In this document: one piece after another, positions 5,613-56,541 of the stretch
Layout of the letters: each line of letters opens with the position of its first letter
Position numbering within the stretch: the stretch's first letter is position 1
Source: Escherichia coli
Lineage (GTDB): Bacteria > Pseudomonadota > Gammaproteobacteria > Enterobacterales > Enterobacteriaceae
Assembly (NCBI RefSeq): GCF_016903815.1
Contig: NZ_CP069973.1
Direction: 5' to 3' (one strand)
Length of the DNA: 64,000 nucleotides
The notes under the pieces: model-generated
What the model was told of the DNA's origin: nothing
What the model saw: the letters and a program-made list of their open reading frames with translations, nothing else
The model's database searches: none
Position numbers and translations under genes: made by a program

Positions 5613-5704
5613 AATTCTGTTTCATCAGACCGCTTCTGCGTTCTGATTTAATCTGTATCAGGCTGAAAATCTTCTCTCATCCGCCAAAACATCTTCGGCG
5701 TTGT

Positions 5705-30286: not shown

Positions 30287-30305
30287 ACCCTATGGGAGGG
30301 ACTTC

Positions 30306-30488
30306 ATGGTTGGCGAACATTTCAGCCGAACGCAGCAAAAGTGGGCTTGTGTGCAATTTATTGCCGAGGTATCTCTGATTGCAAACTGCAAGCCATCAGA
30401 CTTAAAGCTCGCGCTCACTCTCATTGCAGACCTAGCAAACAGCGAAAATAACGAAACCGAAGATGATAATTTTTATAAGGCTGATTAG
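30306..30488 (+). CDS. small protein, candidate Tum-like antirepressor module
   Basis: 60-aa ORF directly downstream of the LexA box; function inferred from position only. Confidence 0.45.
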   Translation: MVGEHFSRTQQKWACVQFIAEVSLIANCKPSDLKLALTLIADLANSENNETEDDNFYKAD

Positions 30489-30491
30489 ATT

Positions 30492-30722
30492 ATGAGAATC
30501 AATATCACGTTGGATAAAGAGCAAAAATTAGGGCAACAGATCATTGATGCTTTTCAAAATGAAATAACACATCGAGTACAATGCGTTTTTCCTGCAACAA
30601 AAGTTAACGTTAAGAAAGGGTCAATGACTGGTGTAGAGGCTATCGGATTCGATAAAGAGGCGGACAGAGAAACATTAGGCAGCATATTACAAGAGATTTG
30701 GGAAGACGATAGCTGGCGTTAA
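30492..30722 (+). CDS. DinI-family protein
   Basis: 76-aa product with DinI-like C-terminus (…LGSILQEIWEDDSWR). Confidence 0.75.
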   Translation: MRINITLDKEQKLGQQIIDAFQNEITHRVQCVFPATKVNVKKGSMTGVEAIGFDKEADRETLGSILQEIWEDDSWR

Positions 30723-30761
30723 ACATAATAACCGTGCTGGCGCAAAAACTAGCTTTTTGCG

Positions 30762-30795
30762 TCGGCGGGGTTGAGTAACGAGCCCACGAGGCTTA
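30762..30795 (+). repeat. direct repeat copy 1 (GGCGGGGTTGAGTAACGAGCCCACGAGGC)
   Basis: About 80 percent identical to copy 2 at 31165..31198; follows a hairpin. Confidence 0.5.
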
Positions 30796-30921
30796 AGTCC
30801 TGCCTTTCAAAATTTCTCAATGTGCTATTGATGACACGCCCATGATTAATGAGGCATGACCTGAGATGGTTTTATAGTGGCGTTTTGACGGCACTGATTA
30901 AAATTCATTGAGGGTGATAAT

Positions 30922-31131
30922 ATGCATCGACTACCAGGTGAAATACCGCAACACAAAACTAAAAGCATCAAACTGATGGCCATCGTTCATCGTTTGCAGC
31001 AGATAATGGTCAATGAGAATTTGACACCCGCAGAGCTGGTCGGGTGTGCCGAAATAGTCAGGGATAATTACGGCAAGCTGGATAGCATCAGCAGGTCGAA
31101 ACAATACGCACCACCACCACGTCGACGATAG
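30922..31131 (+). CDS. hypothetical small protein (69 aa)
   Basis: Good SD (GAGGGTGA) 6 nt upstream of ATG; flanked by the two direct repeats. Confidence 0.4.
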   Translation: MHRLPGEIPQHKTKSIKLMAIVHRLQQIMVNENLTPAELVGCAEIVRDNYGKLDSISRSKQYAPPPRRR

Positions 31132-31164
31132 CAAACGCCGCCGGTTCTGAAACTCGCTTTCAGT

Positions 31165-31198
31165 ACTGGCGGGGGTTGAACAACGAGCACCGCGAGGC
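31165..31198 (+). repeat. direct repeat copy 2 (GGCGGGGGTTGAACAACGAGCACCGCGAGGC)
   Basis: See copy 1; lies in the convergent gap between the 69-aa ORF and the 313-aa gene. Confidence 0.5.
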
Positions 31199-31205
31199 GT
31201 TAGCA

Positions 31206-32147
31206 TTAATTTATTTTTAATGAATGGTAATCTCGTGAGTTGACCGAAGATTTGAGATAACTGCAATCATTAACCGACAGTATTGCCGCTAATAGGCGAC
31301 ATACCAGTGCCTGCATTTGCAGCAATATATCGTTACCATATTGACTGTTGTTAACACTTGAGAAACCAAGCGGTTGACCAAAAAAAATAGCCTCATGAAA
31401 ATTATCATTGCGGATGCCAGAAATGTTTTTTTTACCTGACACCCATGTGGGGATTGATAACCCATAAATTTTGCACATCCACTTTAATCGCTTGTAATGA
31501 TTTGGCGGTTTTTTATCAGGAGCCTTGTCATGCTCAGCCCACGACAAAGCAAAGCACCCATCAAGTGCCATGTAAAGGTACTGGAATTTTTCAAAAGAAA
31601 GGTATTGTGGGTTTTGAGATAAGAATAGTGCATGCACCACTGCCGCAATTCTTTTGGGGGAGTGCGCATCCTTATGTTTGCCATTTATATAATTAAGAGC
31701 CAGTTCTATGACTTCTTTTTCAGAGCATCCAACGAGAATAAAGTCGGTTAACTTAGTGGGCTTGATAGTGGTTGCATCTAAAAAACCAGCGTCAGTGGTT
31801 GTCAATCTTATTCCCTTGAAAAAAGAAAGGCACCACACAATAAAGTTGAGAGTTTCTAACGAGGATGTATTTTTTAATTTTAGTGTGTGCGTTTTGGGCA
31901 TACTGAATACTCGGTGACTATAAGGCATTGTGGATATGCCACCATTAAGGTTATATACATCTTGGTTTCCAGGGTATATCCAACCTTTCACAACGTTTTT
32001 ATCATTATTAACACGCTCCACTTTCTCATTGAGACCAGGTAAAGTAAGCAAAGAAAATTGTTCAGTCTCAATGTTAACTTCTACTGGATAGTATCCAAAC
32101 TCCGACATAATCTCATTGGGTTGCTGTTCGTCAACTTCACCTTGCAT
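31206..32147 (-). CDS. accessory protein (313 aa) with Rx4H motif; candidate HEPN-like abortive-infection protein
   Basis: A+T-rich ORF in the region between replication gene A and cos; motif GIRNDNFHEA (R-x4-H); no other recognised domain. Confidence 0.65.
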   Translation of the reverse strand: MQGEVDEQQPNEIMSEFGYYPVEVNIETEQFSLLTLPGLNEKVERVNNDKNVVKGWIYPGNQDVYNLNGGISTMPYSHRVFSMPKTHTLKLKNTSSLETLNFIVWCLSFFKGIRLTTTDAGFLDATTIKPTKLTDFILVGCSEKEVIELALNYINGKHKDAHSPKRIAAVVHALFLSQNPQYLSFEKFQYLYMALDGCFALSWAEHDKAPDKKPPNHYKRLKWMCKIYGLSIPTWVSGKKNISGIRNDNFHEAIFFGQPLGFSSVNNSQYGNDILLQMQALVCRLLAAILSVNDCSYLKSSVNSRDYHSLKIN

Positions 32148-32384
32148 ATCTTTCTCCGTTCAAAAATAGGCTCGATAATTATCGAGAGGCTATCATGTTT
32201 GGAAAGAATCAATGTCCGTAATTTTTGTAAATTTAAGGTGATTTATCAATAAATAAGCTGTGCATGCAACAGGTGCATGGTTCTGCATGCGCCGGGGTTA
32301 CCCGTTTTGTACGTGCGCCGCAAGAGCTGGCGGGGATCCAGAGTGGTCATGCAACTGCATTAAAACCGCCCCATAAAGCGGGCA

Positions 32385-32403
32385 GGCGTGGCGGGGAAAG
32401 CAT
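32385..32403. other. candidate cos site (cohesive end)
   Basis: GGCGTGGCGGGGAAAGCAT closely resembles my recollection of the P2 cohesive end (GGCGAGGCGGGGAAAGCAC); embedded in a GC-rich non-coding stretch near Q. Confidence 0.55.
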
Positions 32404-32622
32404 TGCGCGCCAGCAGTGATGCGTAATAATAAAAATTATCCTCTGAGCGCGTCGTGATGGCGCTGTCGTGGTCGCTGCTGGTTCGTTGGTGGTCGGGTGT
32501 GTTCGTGCGCGTGAGACGCATCTGATGCGTGATGGTGGTGTGCATGGAAAAGCCACCAGGAGCAGCGGCTTTACAGGAGTGGCAGGATTCAAACTGCTAA
32601 TTATGTTTCTACTATGATTAAA

Positions 32623-33627
32623 CTAATTTACATGTATGTAGAGTTCACCGTCGCCAGACCAATCGGGACACTCTAAAACAAGCCCAAACTGCTTGAATAT
32701 TTCATCAATGATTATTGTTATCTCCCGAAAATCACCAAAACCTGTAATGTGCTGGTCATTAAACTTCCCATAAAGATTCTGAAAAGCAATGCCTAATTCT
32801 GATAATTGATATCTTATCTTTGAGTTGGATAGTGTAAGGGATAGCTTTGGATCGTATTCTTTAATATTGATGTTTAGAGAATGGACATAACCCATCGCAT
32901 AAGCATAAGAGTTGATGATTAGCCTGATACGTTTTTTTACTTCGAGATACATGTCATTCAGAGAAATATTACCGTACTTATAACCCCAGATGAGTTTTTC
33001 AATCTCGTCAGATACTTCATTTACAACAGTGTCAAGATTCTCTAAAAATAAATCGATAGTTTCTTGAGGGGCAGACCCCGAAGACATGTAATTAGCGAGA
33101 TATTCAGACCATGCACGCGTGGCTGAGATAAGAAGCGCGCTACCATACTCGTTGACTGTAAAGTTTTGGGCTAAGCATGTTAGTAAGTTTTTTTCATGTA
33201 CGTGCACTAATTCATGGTGAATGCGATGGATGACTGCGAGGTATCCTTCTTCTTTCAGTTTTAAGAAGCTACCATCATTGAAAAGCTCAACAAAAAAATC
33301 AATCGATAGCACAAGGGTATATTCTTCACATAGCCCATCATTGCCAATTTTTGTTACTAACTGCCCGACGGCTGCGCCCTGTTTGCTATTGGTAAATGAA
33401 CTAGGGGATTTGTGTTGGTAAGAGGATGTTACCTTTTGAAGAGCTTCACTGAAGTTATAGGAAACAATCACGCATTTTAATTTGGAGATATCAAGATTGA
33501 GATTTTTTGTTAAAGCTCGGATAGCTTCTAGTGTGAAATTACCGATATTATTTGCTTCTTGCTCAGTAGCGAAACCTTCGAGGGTTATTTTAAAATCAGT
33601 TTCCAAAATATTAATCTCCGCGCCCAT
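32623..33627 (-). CDS. accessory protein (334 aa) with HExxH motif; candidate zincin-like metallopeptidase
   Basis: A+T-rich ORF between cos and portal gene Q; motif HRIHHELVHVHE with Glu about 23 residues downstream. Confidence 0.65.
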   Translation of the reverse strand: MGAEINILETDFKITLEGFATEQEANNIGNFTLEAIRALTKNLNLDISKLKCVIVSYNFSEALQKVTSSYQHKSPSSFTNSKQGAAVGQLVTKIGNDGLCEEYTLVLSIDFFVELFNDGSFLKLKEEGYLAVIHRIHHELVHVHEKNLLTCLAQNFTVNEYGSALLISATRAWSEYLANYMSSGSAPQETIDLFLENLDTVVNEVSDEIEKLIWGYKYGNISLNDMYLEVKKRIRLIINSYAYAMGYVHSLNINIKEYDPKLSLTLSNSKIRYQLSELGIAFQNLYGKFNDQHITGFGDFREITIIIDEIFKQFGLVLECPDWSGDGELYIHVN

Positions 33628-33704
33628 TGTTTTGATATTCGATGCACTATAGCTTTCGCAGATTGCATCTTCAATAATGAGCGCAGAGATTGTGGCGGCC
33701 TAAG

Positions 33705-42519: not shown

Positions 42520-42563
42520 AGGTGGGCGTGCCCACTGAGTTGGGTTCGATTCCCTAACCTCGT
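42520..42563 (+). other. tRNA 3'-end-like fragment (T-arm-like GGGTTCGATTCCC), not a complete tRNA
   Basis: T-loop consensus TTCGATT with flanking G/C stem; upstream part cannot be folded into a cloverleaf. Confidence 0.3.
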
Positions 42564-43390
42564 ATTATTCCTCTCGATATTTTTATTGCTGGGTTTTCCT
42601 TTCTTATTTCATTTTTAATTTGCTCATCACAAATTAAATAATCTATGTTTTTTGCTTTAACAAGTTCTTTAACGCTAATGTTAATTGAATTTAATAGATT
42701 TGCATTCCGCATGTTAGCCCCTTCATAAGTAACGGATTTAAAATCACATCCTTTTAATATGCAGCTTTTCATTTCGCTATCTGTAAAATACCCCCCTTCA
42801 AAACTGCAGTTTTCGAAAGTGACATTTTGAAAACATGTATTAAATGCCTTAATATTTCTTAGCTTGCAGTTTTTGAATTTAACACTCTTAACTCTATTGC
42901 CTGTAATATTTAGAGCTTGAATTGTGCAATTATCGAAAGAACAATCTCTAATGTATGATTCGCTCATATTCAAGCCGGTTAAGTCAGCGTCTTTAAAATG
43001 TAAATATTTGATAGTGGACATTTTATCAAGTTCAATCCTTGGAACTTGAATGTTATATATTCCTTTAGCATTTAACTGACGTATGATTTTTATCTTCATA
43101 ATATTCAGTTCTGCAGAAGAATGCTTTGCCAGATTTTCAAGATCTTCAATTAGTTCGTGAATAGCATCTTTATTTTGCCTTTTATTTTCAAAATAGTAAA
43201 GAATCACACCCAAAACAAGAAAGTCTAAAATTGAAGAATTTGCATTAACAAGAAAATTCTCCATGAATTTTGAGTTGTAGTTATCATTATAAACAGACAA
43301 CCCTACTATAAGCCCGGAGTATAAAAAAAAGATACCTATAATATATTTCATATTGCTTATTGTACGCCTAAAAGATGAAGTTCTTTTCAT
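42554..43390 (-). CDS. membrane-anchored pentapeptide-repeat protein (accessory/moron)
   Basis: Very A+T-rich ORF; start chosen at MKRTSSF (AGGT 5 nt upstream); two N-terminal hydrophobic segments, then tandem 5-residue repeats (…DADLTGLNMSESYIRDCSFDNCTIQALNITGN…). Confidence 0.7.
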   Translation of the reverse strand: MKRTSSFRRTISNMKYIIGIFFLYSGLIVGLSVYNDNYNSKFMENFLVNANSSILDFLVLGVILYYFENKRQNKDAIHELIEDLENLAKHSSAELNIMKIKIIRQLNAKGIYNIQVPRIELDKMSTIKYLHFKDADLTGLNMSESYIRDCSFDNCTIQALNITGNRVKSVKFKNCKLRNIKAFNTCFQNVTFENCSFEGGYFTDSEMKSCILKGCDFKSVTYEGANMRNANLLNSINISVKELVKAKNIDYLICDEQIKNEIRKENPAIKISRGIIRG

Positions 43391-43462
43391 TACTACCTGC
43401 CATATGTTTTGTGTGATTTTCGAATGAGTCAACACTCAAATGATACATGAATGCACACCGAA

Positions 43463-45422: not shown

Positions 45423-46023
45423 CCGGCTATTACCCGTTGGCTCGTCGCCGCTGGAGGTCGCCGCCGCCGCTGCGTTCTCTGAGATTCAGCGCGTGCCGGT
45501 ACCGCTGCGCACCCTGTGGAACTGGCGCACCTGCCCGGTAAAGCTGCTGCCGTATCTGGCGTGGGCGCTGTCGGTCGACAGGTGGGATGAGAAATGGCCG
45601 GAGGCGACAAAGCGCAGCGTCTGCGCGTCCTCGTTTTTCGTCCATCAGCACAAAGGCACCATCAGCGCATTGCGTCGGGTCGTCGAGCCGCTCGGCTTTC
45701 TGATTGAGGTGCGCGAGTGGTGGCAACTCGACGAGGAGCCAGGCACATTCCGCCTCGTTGTTGGCGTCCTCGACAGCGGCATCACTGACGAAATGTATCA
45801 GGAGCTTGAGCGCCTGATTGAAGACGCCAAACCGGCAAGTCGCCACCTGACCGGGCTGGCTATCAGTCTGAGCTCGACCGGCGAACTGTATGTCGGCGCG
45901 GGATGCTATCACGGCGACGCGCTGACTGTTTACCCCTACACCCCCGAGGAGATTGTCGTCGGCGGTGAATATTACCCGGCCTCGGCCATCCATTTGATTG
46001 ATAATCTGAGAGTGAACGCATGA
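45415..46023 (+). CDS. baseplate/tail protein I
   Basis: 202-aa product, position. Confidence 0.8.
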   Translation: MNDRLLPVGSSPLEVAAAAAFSEIQRVPVPLRTLWNWRTCPVKLLPYLAWALSVDRWDEKWPEATKRSVCASSFFVHQHKGTISALRRVVEPLGFLIEVREWWQLDEEPGTFRLVVGVLDSGITDEMYQELERLIEDAKPASRHLTGLAISLSSTGELYVGAGCYHGDALTVYPYTPEEIVVGGEYYPASAIHLIDNLRVNA

Positions 46024-46994
46024 CCGCAAAATATTTTGCCATTCTGACCAATCAGGGCGCGGCGCGGCTGGCGAACGCGGCGGCACTCGGTACCAAACTC
46101 AACCTGACGCAGATGGCCGTCGGTGATGCGAATGGTACGTTGCCGACCCCTGACCCGGCGCAGACGAAGCTCATTAACCAGAAACGCATCGCGCCGCTGA
46201 ACCTGCTGACCGTTGACCCGGCCAATACCAGTCAGATTATCGCGGAACAGATTATTCCCGAGAATGAAGGTGGTTTCTGGATCCGCGAGATTGGTCTCTA
46301 TGACGATGATGGTATTCTGATTGCCGTGGCGAACTGTCCGGAGACCTACAAGCCACAACTGCAGGAGGGAAGCGGTCGCACGCAGACCATTCGCATGATT
46401 CTGATTGTGTCGAGCACATCGGCAATCACCCTGAAAATCGACCCGGCAGTCGTGCTGGCAACGCGCCAGTATGTCGACGACAAGATTATCGAGGTGAAAG
46501 GATATGCTGATGACCTGATGAAAAAACATGTTGAGGCCGCCAATCCACACAAGCAGTACCCGTTAATCGCTAATGCTCTGAAAGAAATGGTTGACGCGGG
46601 ACTGGCCGGCGACGTTCTTAAAAACCTTGGTTTGGGAGAAGCGGCAAAACGGAATGTAGGTAACGGGCAAAACCAAATTCCGGATATGGCGGCGTTTGCC
46701 AGTTCACTTTCATCAACGGGTTTTCAAAAACTCCCTTCAGGTCTGATTATTCAGTGGGGTATTGTCAGTGGAGCATCAAACTATACGGTGACTTACCCGG
46801 TAACATTCCCAAATCGTTCACTTGCGCTGTTGGCTGTGCCACATACAACGTCGGTGGCTGGTATATCTGCAATGGGCATAGCGAACTGTTCTGATATCAG
46901 CAAATCACAGTTCTATATAATTGTTGGCGGTATATCTCAGGGAGAAATTGTCAAATATGAAAGGTCCTGTTTTTGGGTAGCAATCGGTGTATAG
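46020..46994 (+). CDS. tail fibre protein H (constant N-terminus plus currently expressed variable C-terminus)
   Basis: 324-aa ORF; C-terminal third begins at the crossover repeat and has a diverged homologue on the minus strand. Confidence 0.8.
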   Translation: MTAKYFAILTNQGAARLANAAALGTKLNLTQMAVGDANGTLPTPDPAQTKLINQKRIAPLNLLTVDPANTSQIIAEQIIPENEGGFWIREIGLYDDDGILIAVANCPETYKPQLQEGSGRTQTIRMILIVSSTSAITLKIDPAVVLATRQYVDDKIIEVKGYADDLMKKHVEAANPHKQYPLIANALKEMVDAGLAGDVLKNLGLGEAAKRNVGNGQNQIPDMAAFASSLSSTGFQKLPSGLIIQWGIVSGASNYTVTYPVTFPNRSLALLAVPHTTSVAGISAMGIANCSDISKSQFYIIVGGISQGEIVKYERSCFWVAIGV

Positions 46995-47002
46995 GTATAT
47001 CT

Positions 47003-47398
47003 ATGATTTATTTCTCAAAATCGACTAATGGTTTTTTCTTTGATGGTATAAACAGCGACATGCCTGCTGACATTGTTGAGATAAGTACAGACTTATACAA
47101 TGAATTAATTGCCGGACAGCAGGAAGGGGGGAAATTAATCACGTCAGATGAAAATGGTTTACCGGTACTGAAATCTCCGGCGATTGATTATGTCGCACGT
47201 GCGGAAAATCAGCGAATGCAGTTACTTGCTCATGCCGATAATGTCACAGCTGACTGGCGAGTGGAATTAATGCTTGGTGATATCAGCAGTACAGATAAAG
47301 AAAAACTATCCGCCTGGATGAACTACAAAAAAGAAGTAAAAGCCGTCGACACTTCGACGGCTCCTGAGATTAGCTGGCCTGAGTTACCGGAGGCGTAG
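47003..47398 (+). CDS. tail fibre assembly chaperone (G), current orientation
   Basis: Start chosen at MIYFSKSTNGFFF after H stop. Confidence 0.7.
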   Translation: MIYFSKSTNGFFFDGINSDMPADIVEISTDLYNELIAGQQEGGKLITSDENGLPVLKSPAIDYVARAENQRMQLLAHADNVTADWRVELMLGDISSTDKEKLSAWMNYKKEVKAVDTSTAPEISWPELPEA

Positions 47399-47813
47399 GC
47401 CATTCAATATCTGGCGCACTGGAAGTATTGACCTGTTCCAGTGCGTCCAGGTAATCCAGCCACAAATTATATTGCGCCAGTTCGTCACCGTTCAGACGAC
47501 CAATAGCTGCTTTACCGGGCCATTGCTTACTGTTCATGTAGTCGTTTGCCTGGTTGATTTTTTTCTGCTTTTCGGCGTTCGCAGCTTCCACTTCTTCATC
47601 GTGACTTAACGGTGGTAAATCCACCCATACAGGCTGCCCATTTTCATCAGCGCCGCGGGTTTGCCCTTCTGGTGGCATTCCTGAATATGTGAGAAAAACG
47701 TCATCAGAAACACCTACTAAGTCATCTGGCCAGGTGTTGGCTGCTATGTACAGCGACTTCATTTCTTCAGGGTAAAAACCTAGAGTTGATGGAGAAAAAT
47801 AATAAAGAGTCAT
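47370..47813 (-). CDS. alternative tail fibre assembly chaperone (G')
   Basis: 147-aa ORF convergent with G; shares C-terminal motif (…SAPDIEWPTPP vs …TAPEISWPELP). Confidence 0.7.
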   Translation of the reverse strand: MTLYYFSPSTLGFYPEEMKSLYIAANTWPDDLVGVSDDVFLTYSGMPPEGQTRGADENGQPVWVDLPPLSHDEEVEAANAEKQKKINQANDYMNSKQWPGKAAIGRLNGDELAQYNLWLDYLDALEQVNTSSAPDIEWPTPPVTQAS

Positions 47814-47814
47814 A

Positions 47815-48165
47815 TCAGCTTCCTATTGCGAACCAGCGAAAGACATAAACCCCAGATGTTGCATCACAGCGCATCAGGAAATTTGTTTTTGTAAAACTTC
47901 CTGCCGCTCCCGCAATAACCTTTCCACCACCATTGTCGTAAGAGACTACAACCTGATGGCAAATGTTCGGAAAAGAAACCGAGAAGTTAATTGCATTTCC
48001 CGTATTACCTGTCGCACCCACTCCGGCTGTTGCTGATCCCCATTGAATGATTAAGCCGCTAGGTAGTTTTTGATATCCAGCAGCACCCGTTACAGACAAA
48101 AATGAATTTATATCTGGAATCTGGTTTTCCCCTGTTCCGACATCCCGTTTCGCTGCTTCTCCCAA
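47815..48165 (-). CDS. alternative tail fibre C-terminal segment (H'), silent in this orientation
   Basis: Homologous to H C-terminus (GEAAKR.VG.G.NQIPD…YQKLPSGLIIQWG); has no promoter or start of its own. Confidence 0.6.
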   Translation of the reverse strand: MGEAAKRDVGTGENQIPDINSFLSVTGAAGYQKLPSGLIIQWGSATAGVGATGNTGNAINFSVSFPNICHQVVVSYDNGGGKVIAGAAGSFTKTNFLMRCDATSGVYVFRWFAIGS

Positions 48166-48236
48166 ACCAACCTTTTAGAAAATGCAGATATTCCGTTCAG
48201 CTGGCATGTTTCCGACTTTTTACCGGGTTATTTCTC

Positions 48237-48483
48237 ATGTTTATCGGTTATGTACGTGTATCAACAAATGACCAGAACACCGCATTACAGCGAAATGAAC
48301 TGGAGTGCGCAGGATGTGAGCTGATTTTCGAAGATAAAATCAGCGGCAAAACATCAATCAGACTGGCCGGGGCTAAAGAGGTTACTCAGAACCTTGTCAG
48401 AGGGCGATACGCTTGTGGTCTGGAAACTGGATCGCCTCGGGTATCTCAACGCTATACAAACAATTTCCCGCATCCGTTGCTGA
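48237..48483 (+). pseudogene. Hin/Gin/Pin-family serine DNA invertase, frameshifted and 3'-truncated remnant
   Basis: N-terminus MFIGYVRVSTNDQNTALQRNELECAGCELIFEDKISGK matches the invertase catalytic region; homology continues in another frame (…PGLKRLLRTLSEGDTLVVWKLDRLG) after an A4 run at 48349..48352, then is lost before a stop at 48481. Confidence 0.75.
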
Positions 48484-48581
48484 TGTCTCAATGTGTCAGA
48501 CATCGCCCAACACTGACAAATAGCCCCTCAACAGACCAGCCAGGACAATAACACTTGCCCACTAACCACGGAGTTAACCGG

Positions 48582-49760
48582 ATGAGTGATTTTCACCACG
48601 GCGTGCAGGTGCTTGAGATTAACGACGGCACCCGCGTCATTTCCACTGTTGCAACCGCAATTGTCGGCATGGTCTGCACGGCCAGCGATGCGGATGCCGA
48701 GACATTCCCCCTCAACGAACCGGTATTGATTACCAATGTGCAGAGCGCCATTGCAAAAGCCGGTAAAAAAGGCACGTTGTCTGCCTCCCTGCAGGCTATC
48801 GCCGACCAGTCAAAACCCGTCACAGTTGTCGTGCGTGTTGCCGAAGGTACCGGAGAAGACGCCGAAGCGCAGACCATTTCCAATATCATCGGCGGCACGG
48901 ATGAGAACGGTAAATATACCGGCATCAAGGCGCTGTTGACTGCCGAAGCAGTCACCGGCGTTAAGCCGCGCATTCTCGGCGTGCCGGGTCTCGATACCAA
49001 AGAGGTCGCAGTCGCACTTGCTTCGGTCTGTATCAGCCTGCGCGCGTTTGGTTATGTCAGCGCATGGGGTTGTAAAACCATTTCCGAGGCGATGGCCTAT
49101 CGCGAGAATTTCAGCCAGCGCGAGCTGATGGTCATCTGGCCTGATTTCCTTGCATGGGATACCACCACAAACGCCACCGCACCGGCATACGCAACTGCGC
49201 GCGCACTCGGCCTGCGTGCCTATATCGACCAGACCGTCGGCTGGCACAAAACCCTGTCTAACGTCGGCGTGCAGGGTGTTACCGGCATCAGTGCGTCAGT
49301 GTTTTGGGATTTGCAGGCATCCGGCACCGATGCTGATCTGCTCAACGAGGCCGGGGTCACGACACTGGTGCGTAAGGATGGCTTCCGCTTTTGGGGTAAC
49401 CGCACCTGCTCTGATGACCCGCTTTTCCTGTTTGAGAACTACACCCGCACCGCGCAGGTGCTGGCCGACACGATGGCCGAGGCGCACATGTGGGCGGTCG
49501 ATAAGCCCATCACCGCATCACTTATCCGTGACATTGTCGACGGCATTAACGCCAAATTCCGCGAGCTGAAATCAAACGGCTACATCGTGGACGGTGAATG
49601 CTGGTTCGACGAGGAATCGAACGATAAGGAAACCCTCAAGGCCGGGAAACTGTATATCGACTACGACTATACACCGGTTCCACCACTGGAAAGCCTAACC
49701 CTGCGCCAGCGTATCACCGATAAATATCTGGTGGATCTGGCCGAATCGGTCAACAGCTAA
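48582..49760 (+). CDS. tail sheath protein FI
   Basis: Start at MSDFHHGVQVLEINDGTRV; recognised P2 FI-like sequence. Confidence 0.9.
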   Translation: MSDFHHGVQVLEINDGTRVISTVATAIVGMVCTASDADAETFPLNEPVLITNVQSAIAKAGKKGTLSASLQAIADQSKPVTVVVRVAEGTGEDAEAQTISNIIGGTDENGKYTGIKALLTAEAVTGVKPRILGVPGLDTKEVAVALASVCISLRAFGYVSAWGCKTISEAMAYRENFSQRELMVIWPDFLAWDTTTNATAPAYATARALGLRAYIDQTVGWHKTLSNVGVQGVTGISASVFWDLQASGTDADLLNEAGVTTLVRKDGFRFWGNRTCSDDPLFLFENYTRTAQVLADTMAEAHMWAVDKPITASLIRDIVDGINAKFRELKSNGYIVDGECWFDEESNDKETLKAGKLYIDYDYTPVPPLESLTLRQRITDKYLVDLAESVNS

Positions 49761-55773: not shown

Positions 55774-56541
55774 TTACGCCATCCCATCATGTTTATGTTG
55801 CTGTTGTGCGTGTTCCGTTTTGAACTCCGCCAGCAACCTTGCTTGCTCTTCAGTCAGAGCCAGGTTTTCCAGAAGTTCAGGTCTTCTAAGCCAGGTACGG
55901 CCCAGCGACTGTTTCAAACGCCAGCGACGTATCTCGGCATGGTTGCCCGACAGTAACACTGACGGAACTTCCATCCCTTCTAACACCTCAGGCCGCGTAT
56001 AGTGCGGGCAATCCAGCAATCCTTCAGCAAAGGAATCTTCCGTTGCCGAGGCTTCATGTCCCAGTACTCCCGGAATAAACCGGGAAACGGAGTCAATCAG
56101 CGTCATTGCTGGTAACTCACCACCACTGAGAACGTAATCGCCGATTGACCATTCTTCGTCAATTTCGGTTTGGATCACGCGCTCATCTATACCTTCGTAG
56201 CGACCGCACACCAGAATCAATTTTTGATTCGTTGCCAGTTCGCTGACGCCCGCTTGATCAAGCTTGCGTCCCTGTGGTGACAGATAAATCACCTTTGCGC
56301 CTTCACCCGCCGCGGCTTTTGCTGCATGAATGGCGTCCCGCAAAGGTTGCACCATCATTAACATCCCCGGTCCGCCGCCGTAAGGACGATCGTCCACGGT
56401 ACGGTGCCGGTCATGCGTGAAGTCGCGAGGACTCCAGCTCTGGATGCTCAGCAGGCCATTTTTAACTGCCCGGCCAGTTACCCCGTAATCGGTAATTGCG
56501 CGGAACATTTCAGGAAACAGGCTAATTATGCCAATCCACAT
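55774..56541 (-). CDS. trmD: tRNA (guanine37-N1)-methyltransferase
   Basis: 255-aa product, recognised TrmD sequence. Confidence 0.95.

Follow-up and report, generated by a model that had tools for sequence, protein, structure and literature searches.

An invertible tail-fibre segment beside a truncated invertase gene in a 186/P2-type prophage of Escherichia coli

Layout of the segment and its crossover sites

The DNA described here is a stretch of 64,000 nucleotides (hereafter the window) from the chromosome of Escherichia coli (RefSeq assembly GCF_016903815.1, contig NZ_CP069973.1), which contains a complete Peduoviridae prophage at about 23.6-55.3 kb, between yfiB and rplS. Within the tail-fibre gene H of this prophage two inverted 26 bp sites enclose a segment of 1,544 bp, counted between their central dinucleotides (46627-48170), and this segment occurs in both orientations in DNA that is otherwise identical. 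The first-pass annotation of the window had described a Hin/Gin-type invertible fibre segment, and that description holds, since all the structural elements of a fibre switch are present and a natural inversion is found at the predicted crossover points. The features of the locus are listed in Table 1.

The constant part of H lies outside the segment, which itself carries two C-termini, both in frame and each followed by its own chaperone gene, in mirror-image order. Residues 1-150 of H match Pfam PF12571 (8.9e-63), and residues 1-180 have 82.8 % amino acid identity to H of P2-T22, a phage P2 from O157:H43 T22 (KC618326). Homology to canonical P2 H was found at residues 89-186, in a comparison that covered part of the P2 protein, and homology to the P2 family stops near residue 180-186. 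The variable tips beyond this point, Hv and Hv', are 53 % identical over their first 68 amino acids and cannot be aligned further on; Hv also weakly matches a putative tail fibre protein (PDB 4mtm). The two chaperones have 28 % identity to each other, and the C-terminal half of the 147-residue one has 69 % amino acid identity to TfaP of the element e14. With Gp53-like_C and Caudo_TAP domains on both strands, the placing of fibre tips and assembly genes on the plus and minus strands alike was correct, and the minus-strand open reading frames (ORFs), far from being unrelated to fibre proteins, are homologues of a fibre and a chaperone. When the segment is inverted in silico, H stays in frame and encodes 320 rather than 324 amino acids, followed by the 147-residue chaperone; both tips, as remarked earlier, begin with nearly the same peptide, consistent with in-frame exchange. 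A fused fibre gene of 320 amino acids (963 nt, WP_106651929.1) is annotated at the H position in strain 222.

Each crossover site consists of two 12 bp half-sites around a 2 bp core, and the cores match, AA being TT read on the other strand. The two sites share one inner half-site sequence, and the outer half of the right site is degenerate. The half-site pattern TTCT...AACC that had been proposed is accordingly seen in three of the four half-sites, the exception being the outer right one (TTTTCTAAAAGG). Both of the inverted 26 bp sites assigned earlier to 46615-48172 were found, although the right one ends 10 nt further on, at 48182; the former end coordinate, 48172, falls just past the crossover centre. 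A right site at 48147-48172 was rejected, as inversion in silico then fails, whereas 48157-48182 gives an exact inversion. A degenerate form of the site pattern, with up to three mismatches allowed, recovers over the 64 kb the two sites and one weak outlier, against 0.03 matches expected. The outlier (TTCAGTCAGAGCCAGGTTTTCCAGAA, 55849-55874) lies outside the prophage, has three mismatches and a CA core incompatible with TT, and is probably a chance match. No further half-sites beyond those of the two sites were found in the window. A shufflon (Rci acting on multiple sfx repeats) or another multi-site arrangement was also considered and rejected, because there are only two sites and the adjoining gene is a serine-recombinase stump. 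The crossover sites lie at the outer ends of a 67 nt inverted repeat of 82 % identity (46621-46687 and 48110-48176), which encodes the shared peptide GLGEAAKR(N/D)VG(N/T)G(Q/E)NQIPD, and identical sites are present in the sister prophages of VG888, CH423 and CH425.

Three further observations concern the tips and chaperones. Hv by itself, 100 % identical, is found in other genomes with different partners, under the labels 'phage tail protein' or 'gp53-like'. A hairpin at 47338-47365, with a GC-rich 12 bp stem and a T-run on the minus strand, lies just past the stop codon of the silent chaperone gene and overlaps the 3' end of the plus-strand chaperone gene; it would serve as a terminator of the silent gene once this was inverted. 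A promoter and terminator scan of positions 46000-48700 gave nothing above shuffled sequences (one promoter-like site, against 3.7 expected), which fits a silent inverted copy that lacks a promoter, yet is no evidence for one.

Table 1. Features of the fibre locus, with coordinates in the window
Feature	Position	Strand	Basis and remarks
Constant 5' part of tail-fibre gene H, aa 1-202	46020..46626	+	Outside the invertible segment; Phage_tail_fib N-terminal domain, P2-type
Left 26 bp crossover site	46615-46640	unstranded	TTCTTAAAAACC-TT-GGTTTGGGAGAA; central TT at 46627-46628; within the H reading frame
Variable fibre tip Hv, in use in the window orientation	46627..46994	+	Starts GLGEAAKRNVGNGQNQIPD; Gp53-like_C (Pfam PF21882), 1.4e-14
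Tail-fibre assembly chaperone cognate to Hv, 131 aa	47003..47398	+	Caudo_TAP, 2.2e-24; phrog_188, 6.7e-41; PGAP WP_061350398.1
Alternative tail-fibre assembly chaperone, 147 aa, silent in the window orientation	47370..47813	-	Caudo_TAP, 3.3e-31
Alternative fibre tip Hv', 117 aa from GLGEAAKRDVG..., silent in the window orientation	47815..48170	-	Starts GLGEAAKRDVGTGENQIPD; Gp53-like_C, 1.1e-17
Right 26 bp crossover site	48157-48182	unstranded	TTCTCCCAAACC-AA-CCTTTTAGAAAA; central AA at 48169-48170
Pin/Gin-family serine invertase stump	48237..48445	+	Three-frame translation, tblastn, DNA alignment with gin, pinE and the P2-T22 invertase gene
Putative recombinational (Fis) enhancer in the stump	48258..48321	unstranded	Two G-N13-C 15-mers, at +21 and +70 of the ORF
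Late promoter PF region for the FI operon, activator-binding dyad and leader	48486..48581	+	Alignment with the annotated P2 activator site and with PF of P2 and P2-T22

The truncated invertase gene

The prophage's own invertase gene, which the first-pass annotation had overlooked, is a dead, frameshifted and truncated pseudogene. Its ORF begins MFIGYVRVSTNDQNT at 48237, downstream of the right site, and runs through codons 1-40, a 4 nt insertion (about 48353-48356) and codons 41-67 to a deletion junction after 48445, following ...GATCGCCTCGGG (...WKLDRLG). Everything past codon 67 of about 190 has been lost, that is, the rest of the catalytic domain, the E-helix included, and the entire DNA-binding domain. 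Corrected for frame, the stump corresponds to residues 1-67 of the 193-residue Gin (PDB 4m6f, 3e-29), and the annotation pipeline PGAP labels it 'recombinase family protein, frameshifted'. Beside the segment there is no functional serine invertase with a catalytic domain and a C-terminal helix-turn-helix (HTH) motif, only the frameshifted codons 1-67, and no other invertase gene was found within the 64 kb window.

The deletion ends just before the PF activator site and leaves this site and the FI gene intact. Its 3' junction is common to the window, VG888 and CH423, the flanks of which diverge by up to 3.5 % (identity to the window is 99.3-99.8 % for VG888 and 96.5-98.1 % for CH423/CH425), and since the same junction is found in diverged sister prophages with other cassettes, the truncation is older than the divergence of these prophages. 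The frameshifts are distributed differently: the window and VG888 have the additional 4 nt, whereas CH423 lacks them and has a 1 nt deletion instead (5640-5680 of the CH423 record). Over its first 116 nt the stump shows no difference among the lineages of the window, VG888 and CH423, which are three lineages only and have flanks that diverge by 2-3.5 %. A 165-residue 'DNA invertase' is annotated in phage P2-T22 (5015-5509 of its record); it lacks the HTH, its C-terminus is aberrant beyond about residue 128, and its gene is probably frameshifted as well.

The part of the gene that remains includes two 15-mers of the form G-N13-C. The first (GTATCAACAAATGAC) is identical in the window, Mu gin and e14 pinE and has its midpoint 95.5 bp from the crossover centre, and the second (GCGCAGGATGTGAGC) differs by 2 nt from its counterpart in each of Mu gin and e14 pinE. 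Both occupy the same positions in those two genes, and the distance from the invertase ATG to the crossover centre is 67.5 bp in the window, Mu and e14 alike. In the native geometry of Hin, the proximal Fis site is about 100 bp from hixL (PMC3798978). The stump thus plausibly keeps the Fis enhancer of its former gene.

Orientation of the segment and a probable source of the recombinase

When positions 46000-48600 were compared by megablast with 5,426 complete E. coli genomes, four genomes were identical to the window, and in strains 222, 103 and 5283, as well as in the predicted prophage vB_EcoM-613R3, the stretch 46621-48170 matched at 99.9 % on the strand opposite to that of its flanks. A tag assembled from the two variable tips identified exactly seven complete genomes that carry the cassette pair, four of them in the window orientation and three inverted. 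The window, once inverted in silico at the central dinucleotides, is the same as the sequences of strain 222 and of 613R3 (from isolate 613), with no mismatches in 9,177 nt, and its flanks are 100 % identical to those of strain 222 and isolate 613. The exchange is confined to 16 nt (46627-46642 and 48155-48170) that begin at the centre of the site, and it cannot lie further out because the bases beside the central dinucleotide differ (CC and GG) in the outer half-sites. A second such pair is formed by CH423 and CH425, which carry a sister prophage that shares the sites and differs in its cassette: the two are in opposite orientation and are related by an exact in silico inversion, with no mismatches in 8,919 nt. 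These isolates are from the same hospital and have chromosomes of 4,740,904 and 4,740,899 bp; CH423/CH458 and CH425 look like one clone, yet their orientation differs. As the flanks of the orientation pairs show no differences at all and the truncation is the older event, inversion has occurred repeatedly after the cis-encoded enzyme was lost.

An invertase acting in trans was sought in the seven cassette-bearing chromosomes, with the number of matching places per chromosome as the read-out. The cassette tag alone gives one place in each of the seven. Joined to the 3' two-thirds of pinE, the part that has no counterpart in the stump, it gives two places in each, and joined to the 5' third of pinE it gives two in the genomes of window orientation, in which tag and stump are collinear, and three in the inverted ones. 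Each chromosome must therefore contain one further locus that has pin-like sequence from both the 5' and the 3' part. The tag with the 3' part of pinE matched 4,697 of the 5,426 genomes, against 471 for the tag alone, so that genes of the pin family are close to ubiquitous in E. coli. The invertases Pin, Gin, Cin and Hin are able to complement one another, and the enzyme that flips the segment is presumably a trans-acting serine invertase encoded elsewhere on the chromosome. A look at other predicted prophages of isolate 613 found no invertase in vB_EcoM-613R2; the record of the Rac-like vB_EcoS-613R10 ends before the end of the fibre region, and in strain 222, which has an identical copy, no invertase follows the fibre genes. 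The Rac-like prophage of isolate 613 is also present, 100 % identical, in six of the seven cassette genomes, in a 'strain 405' and in an O102:H6 strain, and the host lineage is probably ST405 (sequence type 405)/O102:H6. In strain 222 the Rac-like prophage is followed by sitABCD.

We consider it very likely that the locus is a fibre-gene inversion switch of the Pin/Gin/Cin/Hin type in an otherwise intact 186/P2-type prophage, and that this switch, its own invertase being dead, is most likely turned in trans. The late operon V-W-J-I-H-tfa would read into the segment from outside, so that the first 202 codons of H would be fixed and the last ~120 codons, together with a chaperone gene, would be supplied by whichever end of the segment faces the promoter. 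A serine invertase would cut both 26 bp sites at the central TT/AA and rotate the strands, exchanging Hv and its chaperone for Hv' and its chaperone, and virions would carry one of two receptor-binding tips. The enzyme would come from the other pin-family locus detected on the same chromosome.

Several points weigh against this interpretation. The additional pin-like locus is known from match counts alone, which give neither its position nor its intactness or contiguity. The two orientations were seen between genomes and not within one culture of the window's strain. The outer right half-site reads AAGG, and not AACC, beside the cleavage point. The Fis enhancer is assigned by homology only and the binding of Fis is predicted, and a difference in host range between the tips is inferred by analogy with Mu, P1 and carotovoricin.

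The distribution of orientations between genomes, together with a cis invertase that is certainly dead, is also what would be seen if the segment were a frozen relic, in which inversion ceased when the invertase was lost and the two orientations are older leftovers that have been inherited vertically. This seems improbable, since the truncation junction is common to prophages that have diverged by 2-3.5 % and hold three cassettes, while each orientation pair sits on flanks that have no differences over about 9 kb, stump included, and the apparently clonal CH423/CH458 and CH425 differ in orientation. A different enzymology, in which RecA-dependent homologous recombination acts across the 67 nt imperfect inverted repeat and no site-specific recombinase takes part, has in its favour that the 16 nt crossover interval is also the longest perfect run between the arms (the next are 7 and 6 nt), and the location of the exchange alone therefore cannot separate the two processes. 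Efficient RecA exchange in E. coli usually needs roughly 20-30 nt of identity, the minimal efficient processing segment (MEPS). At 16 nt, which is below the MEPS, flips should be very rare, yet apparent clones differ and the orientations are split 4:3; furthermore, the first bases of the interval are precisely the central dinucleotide of a canonical 26 bp site, the partner dinucleotide matches, and a pin-like locus is present in all seven chromosomes. We regard exchange by RecA as very improbable.

It is hardly credible that assembly errors at the inverted repeat produced the opposite orientations. Assemblers can be misled by such repeats, and for strain EC958 alternative contigs were emitted at loci of this kind, but those contigs corresponded to real mixed populations (PMC4134206). 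The repeat at H is only 67 nt long with 82 % identity and is spanned by any type of read, and the genomes that show one or the other orientation were completed in independent projects in Boston, Houston, the UK and Islamabad.

Prophage context and relation to known switches

An identical prophage in strain 2779 has been annotated by PGAP with int, CI, a Cro/CI-family regulator (at the position of apl), CII, Fil, gpA, portal, terminase, capsid and lysis genes, V-W-J-I-H, FI-FII-E-T-U-D and an ogr-like regulator, and its sole pseudogene is the invertase. The gene order from int to ogr is of the P2 type, with a complete head, lysis and tail set. The backbone is nevertheless 186-type (CI/CII/Fil) and not P2 proper, which corrects the first-pass annotation. 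Canonical P2 has H-G-terminator-fun(Z)-PF-FI at the same place and no invertase; the GC content of the segment is 0.448, against 0.55 in the constant part of H and 0.59 in the tail genes upstream; and sister prophages with flanks 96-99 % identical hold different cassettes between identical sites. P2 gene order, GC content and sister-prophage cassettes all agree with the earlier view that the fibre module is mosaic and absent from canonical P2. Cassettes, and even half-cassettes, are swapped between prophages at the conserved ends.

Two other parts of the prophage stand out by their low GC content. Positions 30300-33700, flanked by the replication gene gpA and the portal gene, have values of 0.42-0.44, and the ORFs at 31206-32147, 32623-33627 and 30931-31266 (all on the minus strand) gave no Pfam and no PADLOC match. 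The region lies at the position of tin/old in P2, a defence hotspot, and may be uncharacterized cargo. A gene for a pentapeptide-repeat protein (42554-43435, minus strand; Pentapeptide_4, 1.5e-16) lies between tail-completion genes R/S and baseplate gene V; it gave no PADLOC match. It is present in the prophages of 2779, 222, 613 and VG888 and absent at that spot in CH423.

Among known systems the P segment of e14 (K-12 stfP/tfaP - tfaE/stfE - pinE) is like the present locus in having a constant part, mirror-image tips with chaperones, and an invertase gene beside the right site. Its crossover sites (left CTCTCGAAAACCTTGGTTTGGGAGAA, right TTCTCCCAAACCAACGTTTATGAAAA) are the closest to those of the window: the two systems agree in their inner half-sites (GGTTTGGGAGAA) and central TT, and each has a degenerate outer half in its right site. 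Over the right site and the 5' region of the invertase gene the two have 74 % nucleotide identity. The fibre tips, however, have only 31-37 % amino acid identity, and e14 is a defective lambdoid element with an intact PinE of 184 residues, whereas the window has a 67-codon stump in a complete myovirus of the 186/P2 type. The G segment of Mu with Gin, of which the stump matches residues 1-67, is alike in its Sc/Sv/Sv' logic, its chaperones U/U', its 26 bp gix sites and the enhancer in the 5' end of the invertase gene. It differs in length (about 3 kb, against 1.5 kb here), in gix sequence (TTATCCAAAACCTCGGTTTACAGGAA) and in the intactness of Gin, and DNA similarity to the window is detectable only in the 5' end of the invertase gene.

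Fibre switching by invertases has been textbook material since Mu, P1 and e14, and Fels-2 (Fin) and carotovoricin Er provide examples of P2-type tail modules with invertase-driven fibre exchange and working cis invertases. The P2-like prophages of enteropathogenic E. coli E2348/69 show phase-variable, invertase-driven exchange of the fibre C-terminus (PMC4272514); they differ from the present prophage in having working cis invertases, and one of their loci has three repeats and four variants, against two sites here. Prophage Phi4 of EC958 (ST131) likewise has a severely truncated invertase of its own and shows both orientations in PacBio reads, from which the authors inferred inversion in trans by the invertase of another prophage (PMC4134206). 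Phi4 is a different prophage, with a segment of 3,106 bp and other site sequences (TTATCGAATACCTC GGTTTACAGGAA), and its mixed orientation was found within one culture, whereas here it is seen between genomes only. Invertible fibre segments are thus common in P2-like E. coli prophages, as already published (PMC4272514, PMC4134206), and since the operation in trans of a switch with a truncated invertase has been published too, there is little here that is new in principle.

Three points of practical use can be drawn from the locus. Annotation pipelines split loci of this kind into unrelated 'phage tail protein' and 'gp53-like' coding sequences, and the label of one and the same gene varies with its orientation. 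Differences in orientation among near-identical clinical genomes are to be taken as phase variation, and not as mutation or mis-assembly. We also raise, tentatively and as a rather doubtful possibility, that the stump has been kept for its Fis enhancer, the two sites and the enhancer forming an 'orphan' cis module that is run by the invertase of another element. Two hints point in this direction: the deletion spares the putative enhancer on one side and the PF promoter on the other, and the first 116 nt of the stump are conserved while the part downstream has gained independent frameshifts. If the enhancer has indeed been retained in this way, the host-range choice of one prophage would be set by the enzyme of another element, and this lineage, were the enhancer of the stump under selection, would offer a clean natural example of host range controlled across prophages.

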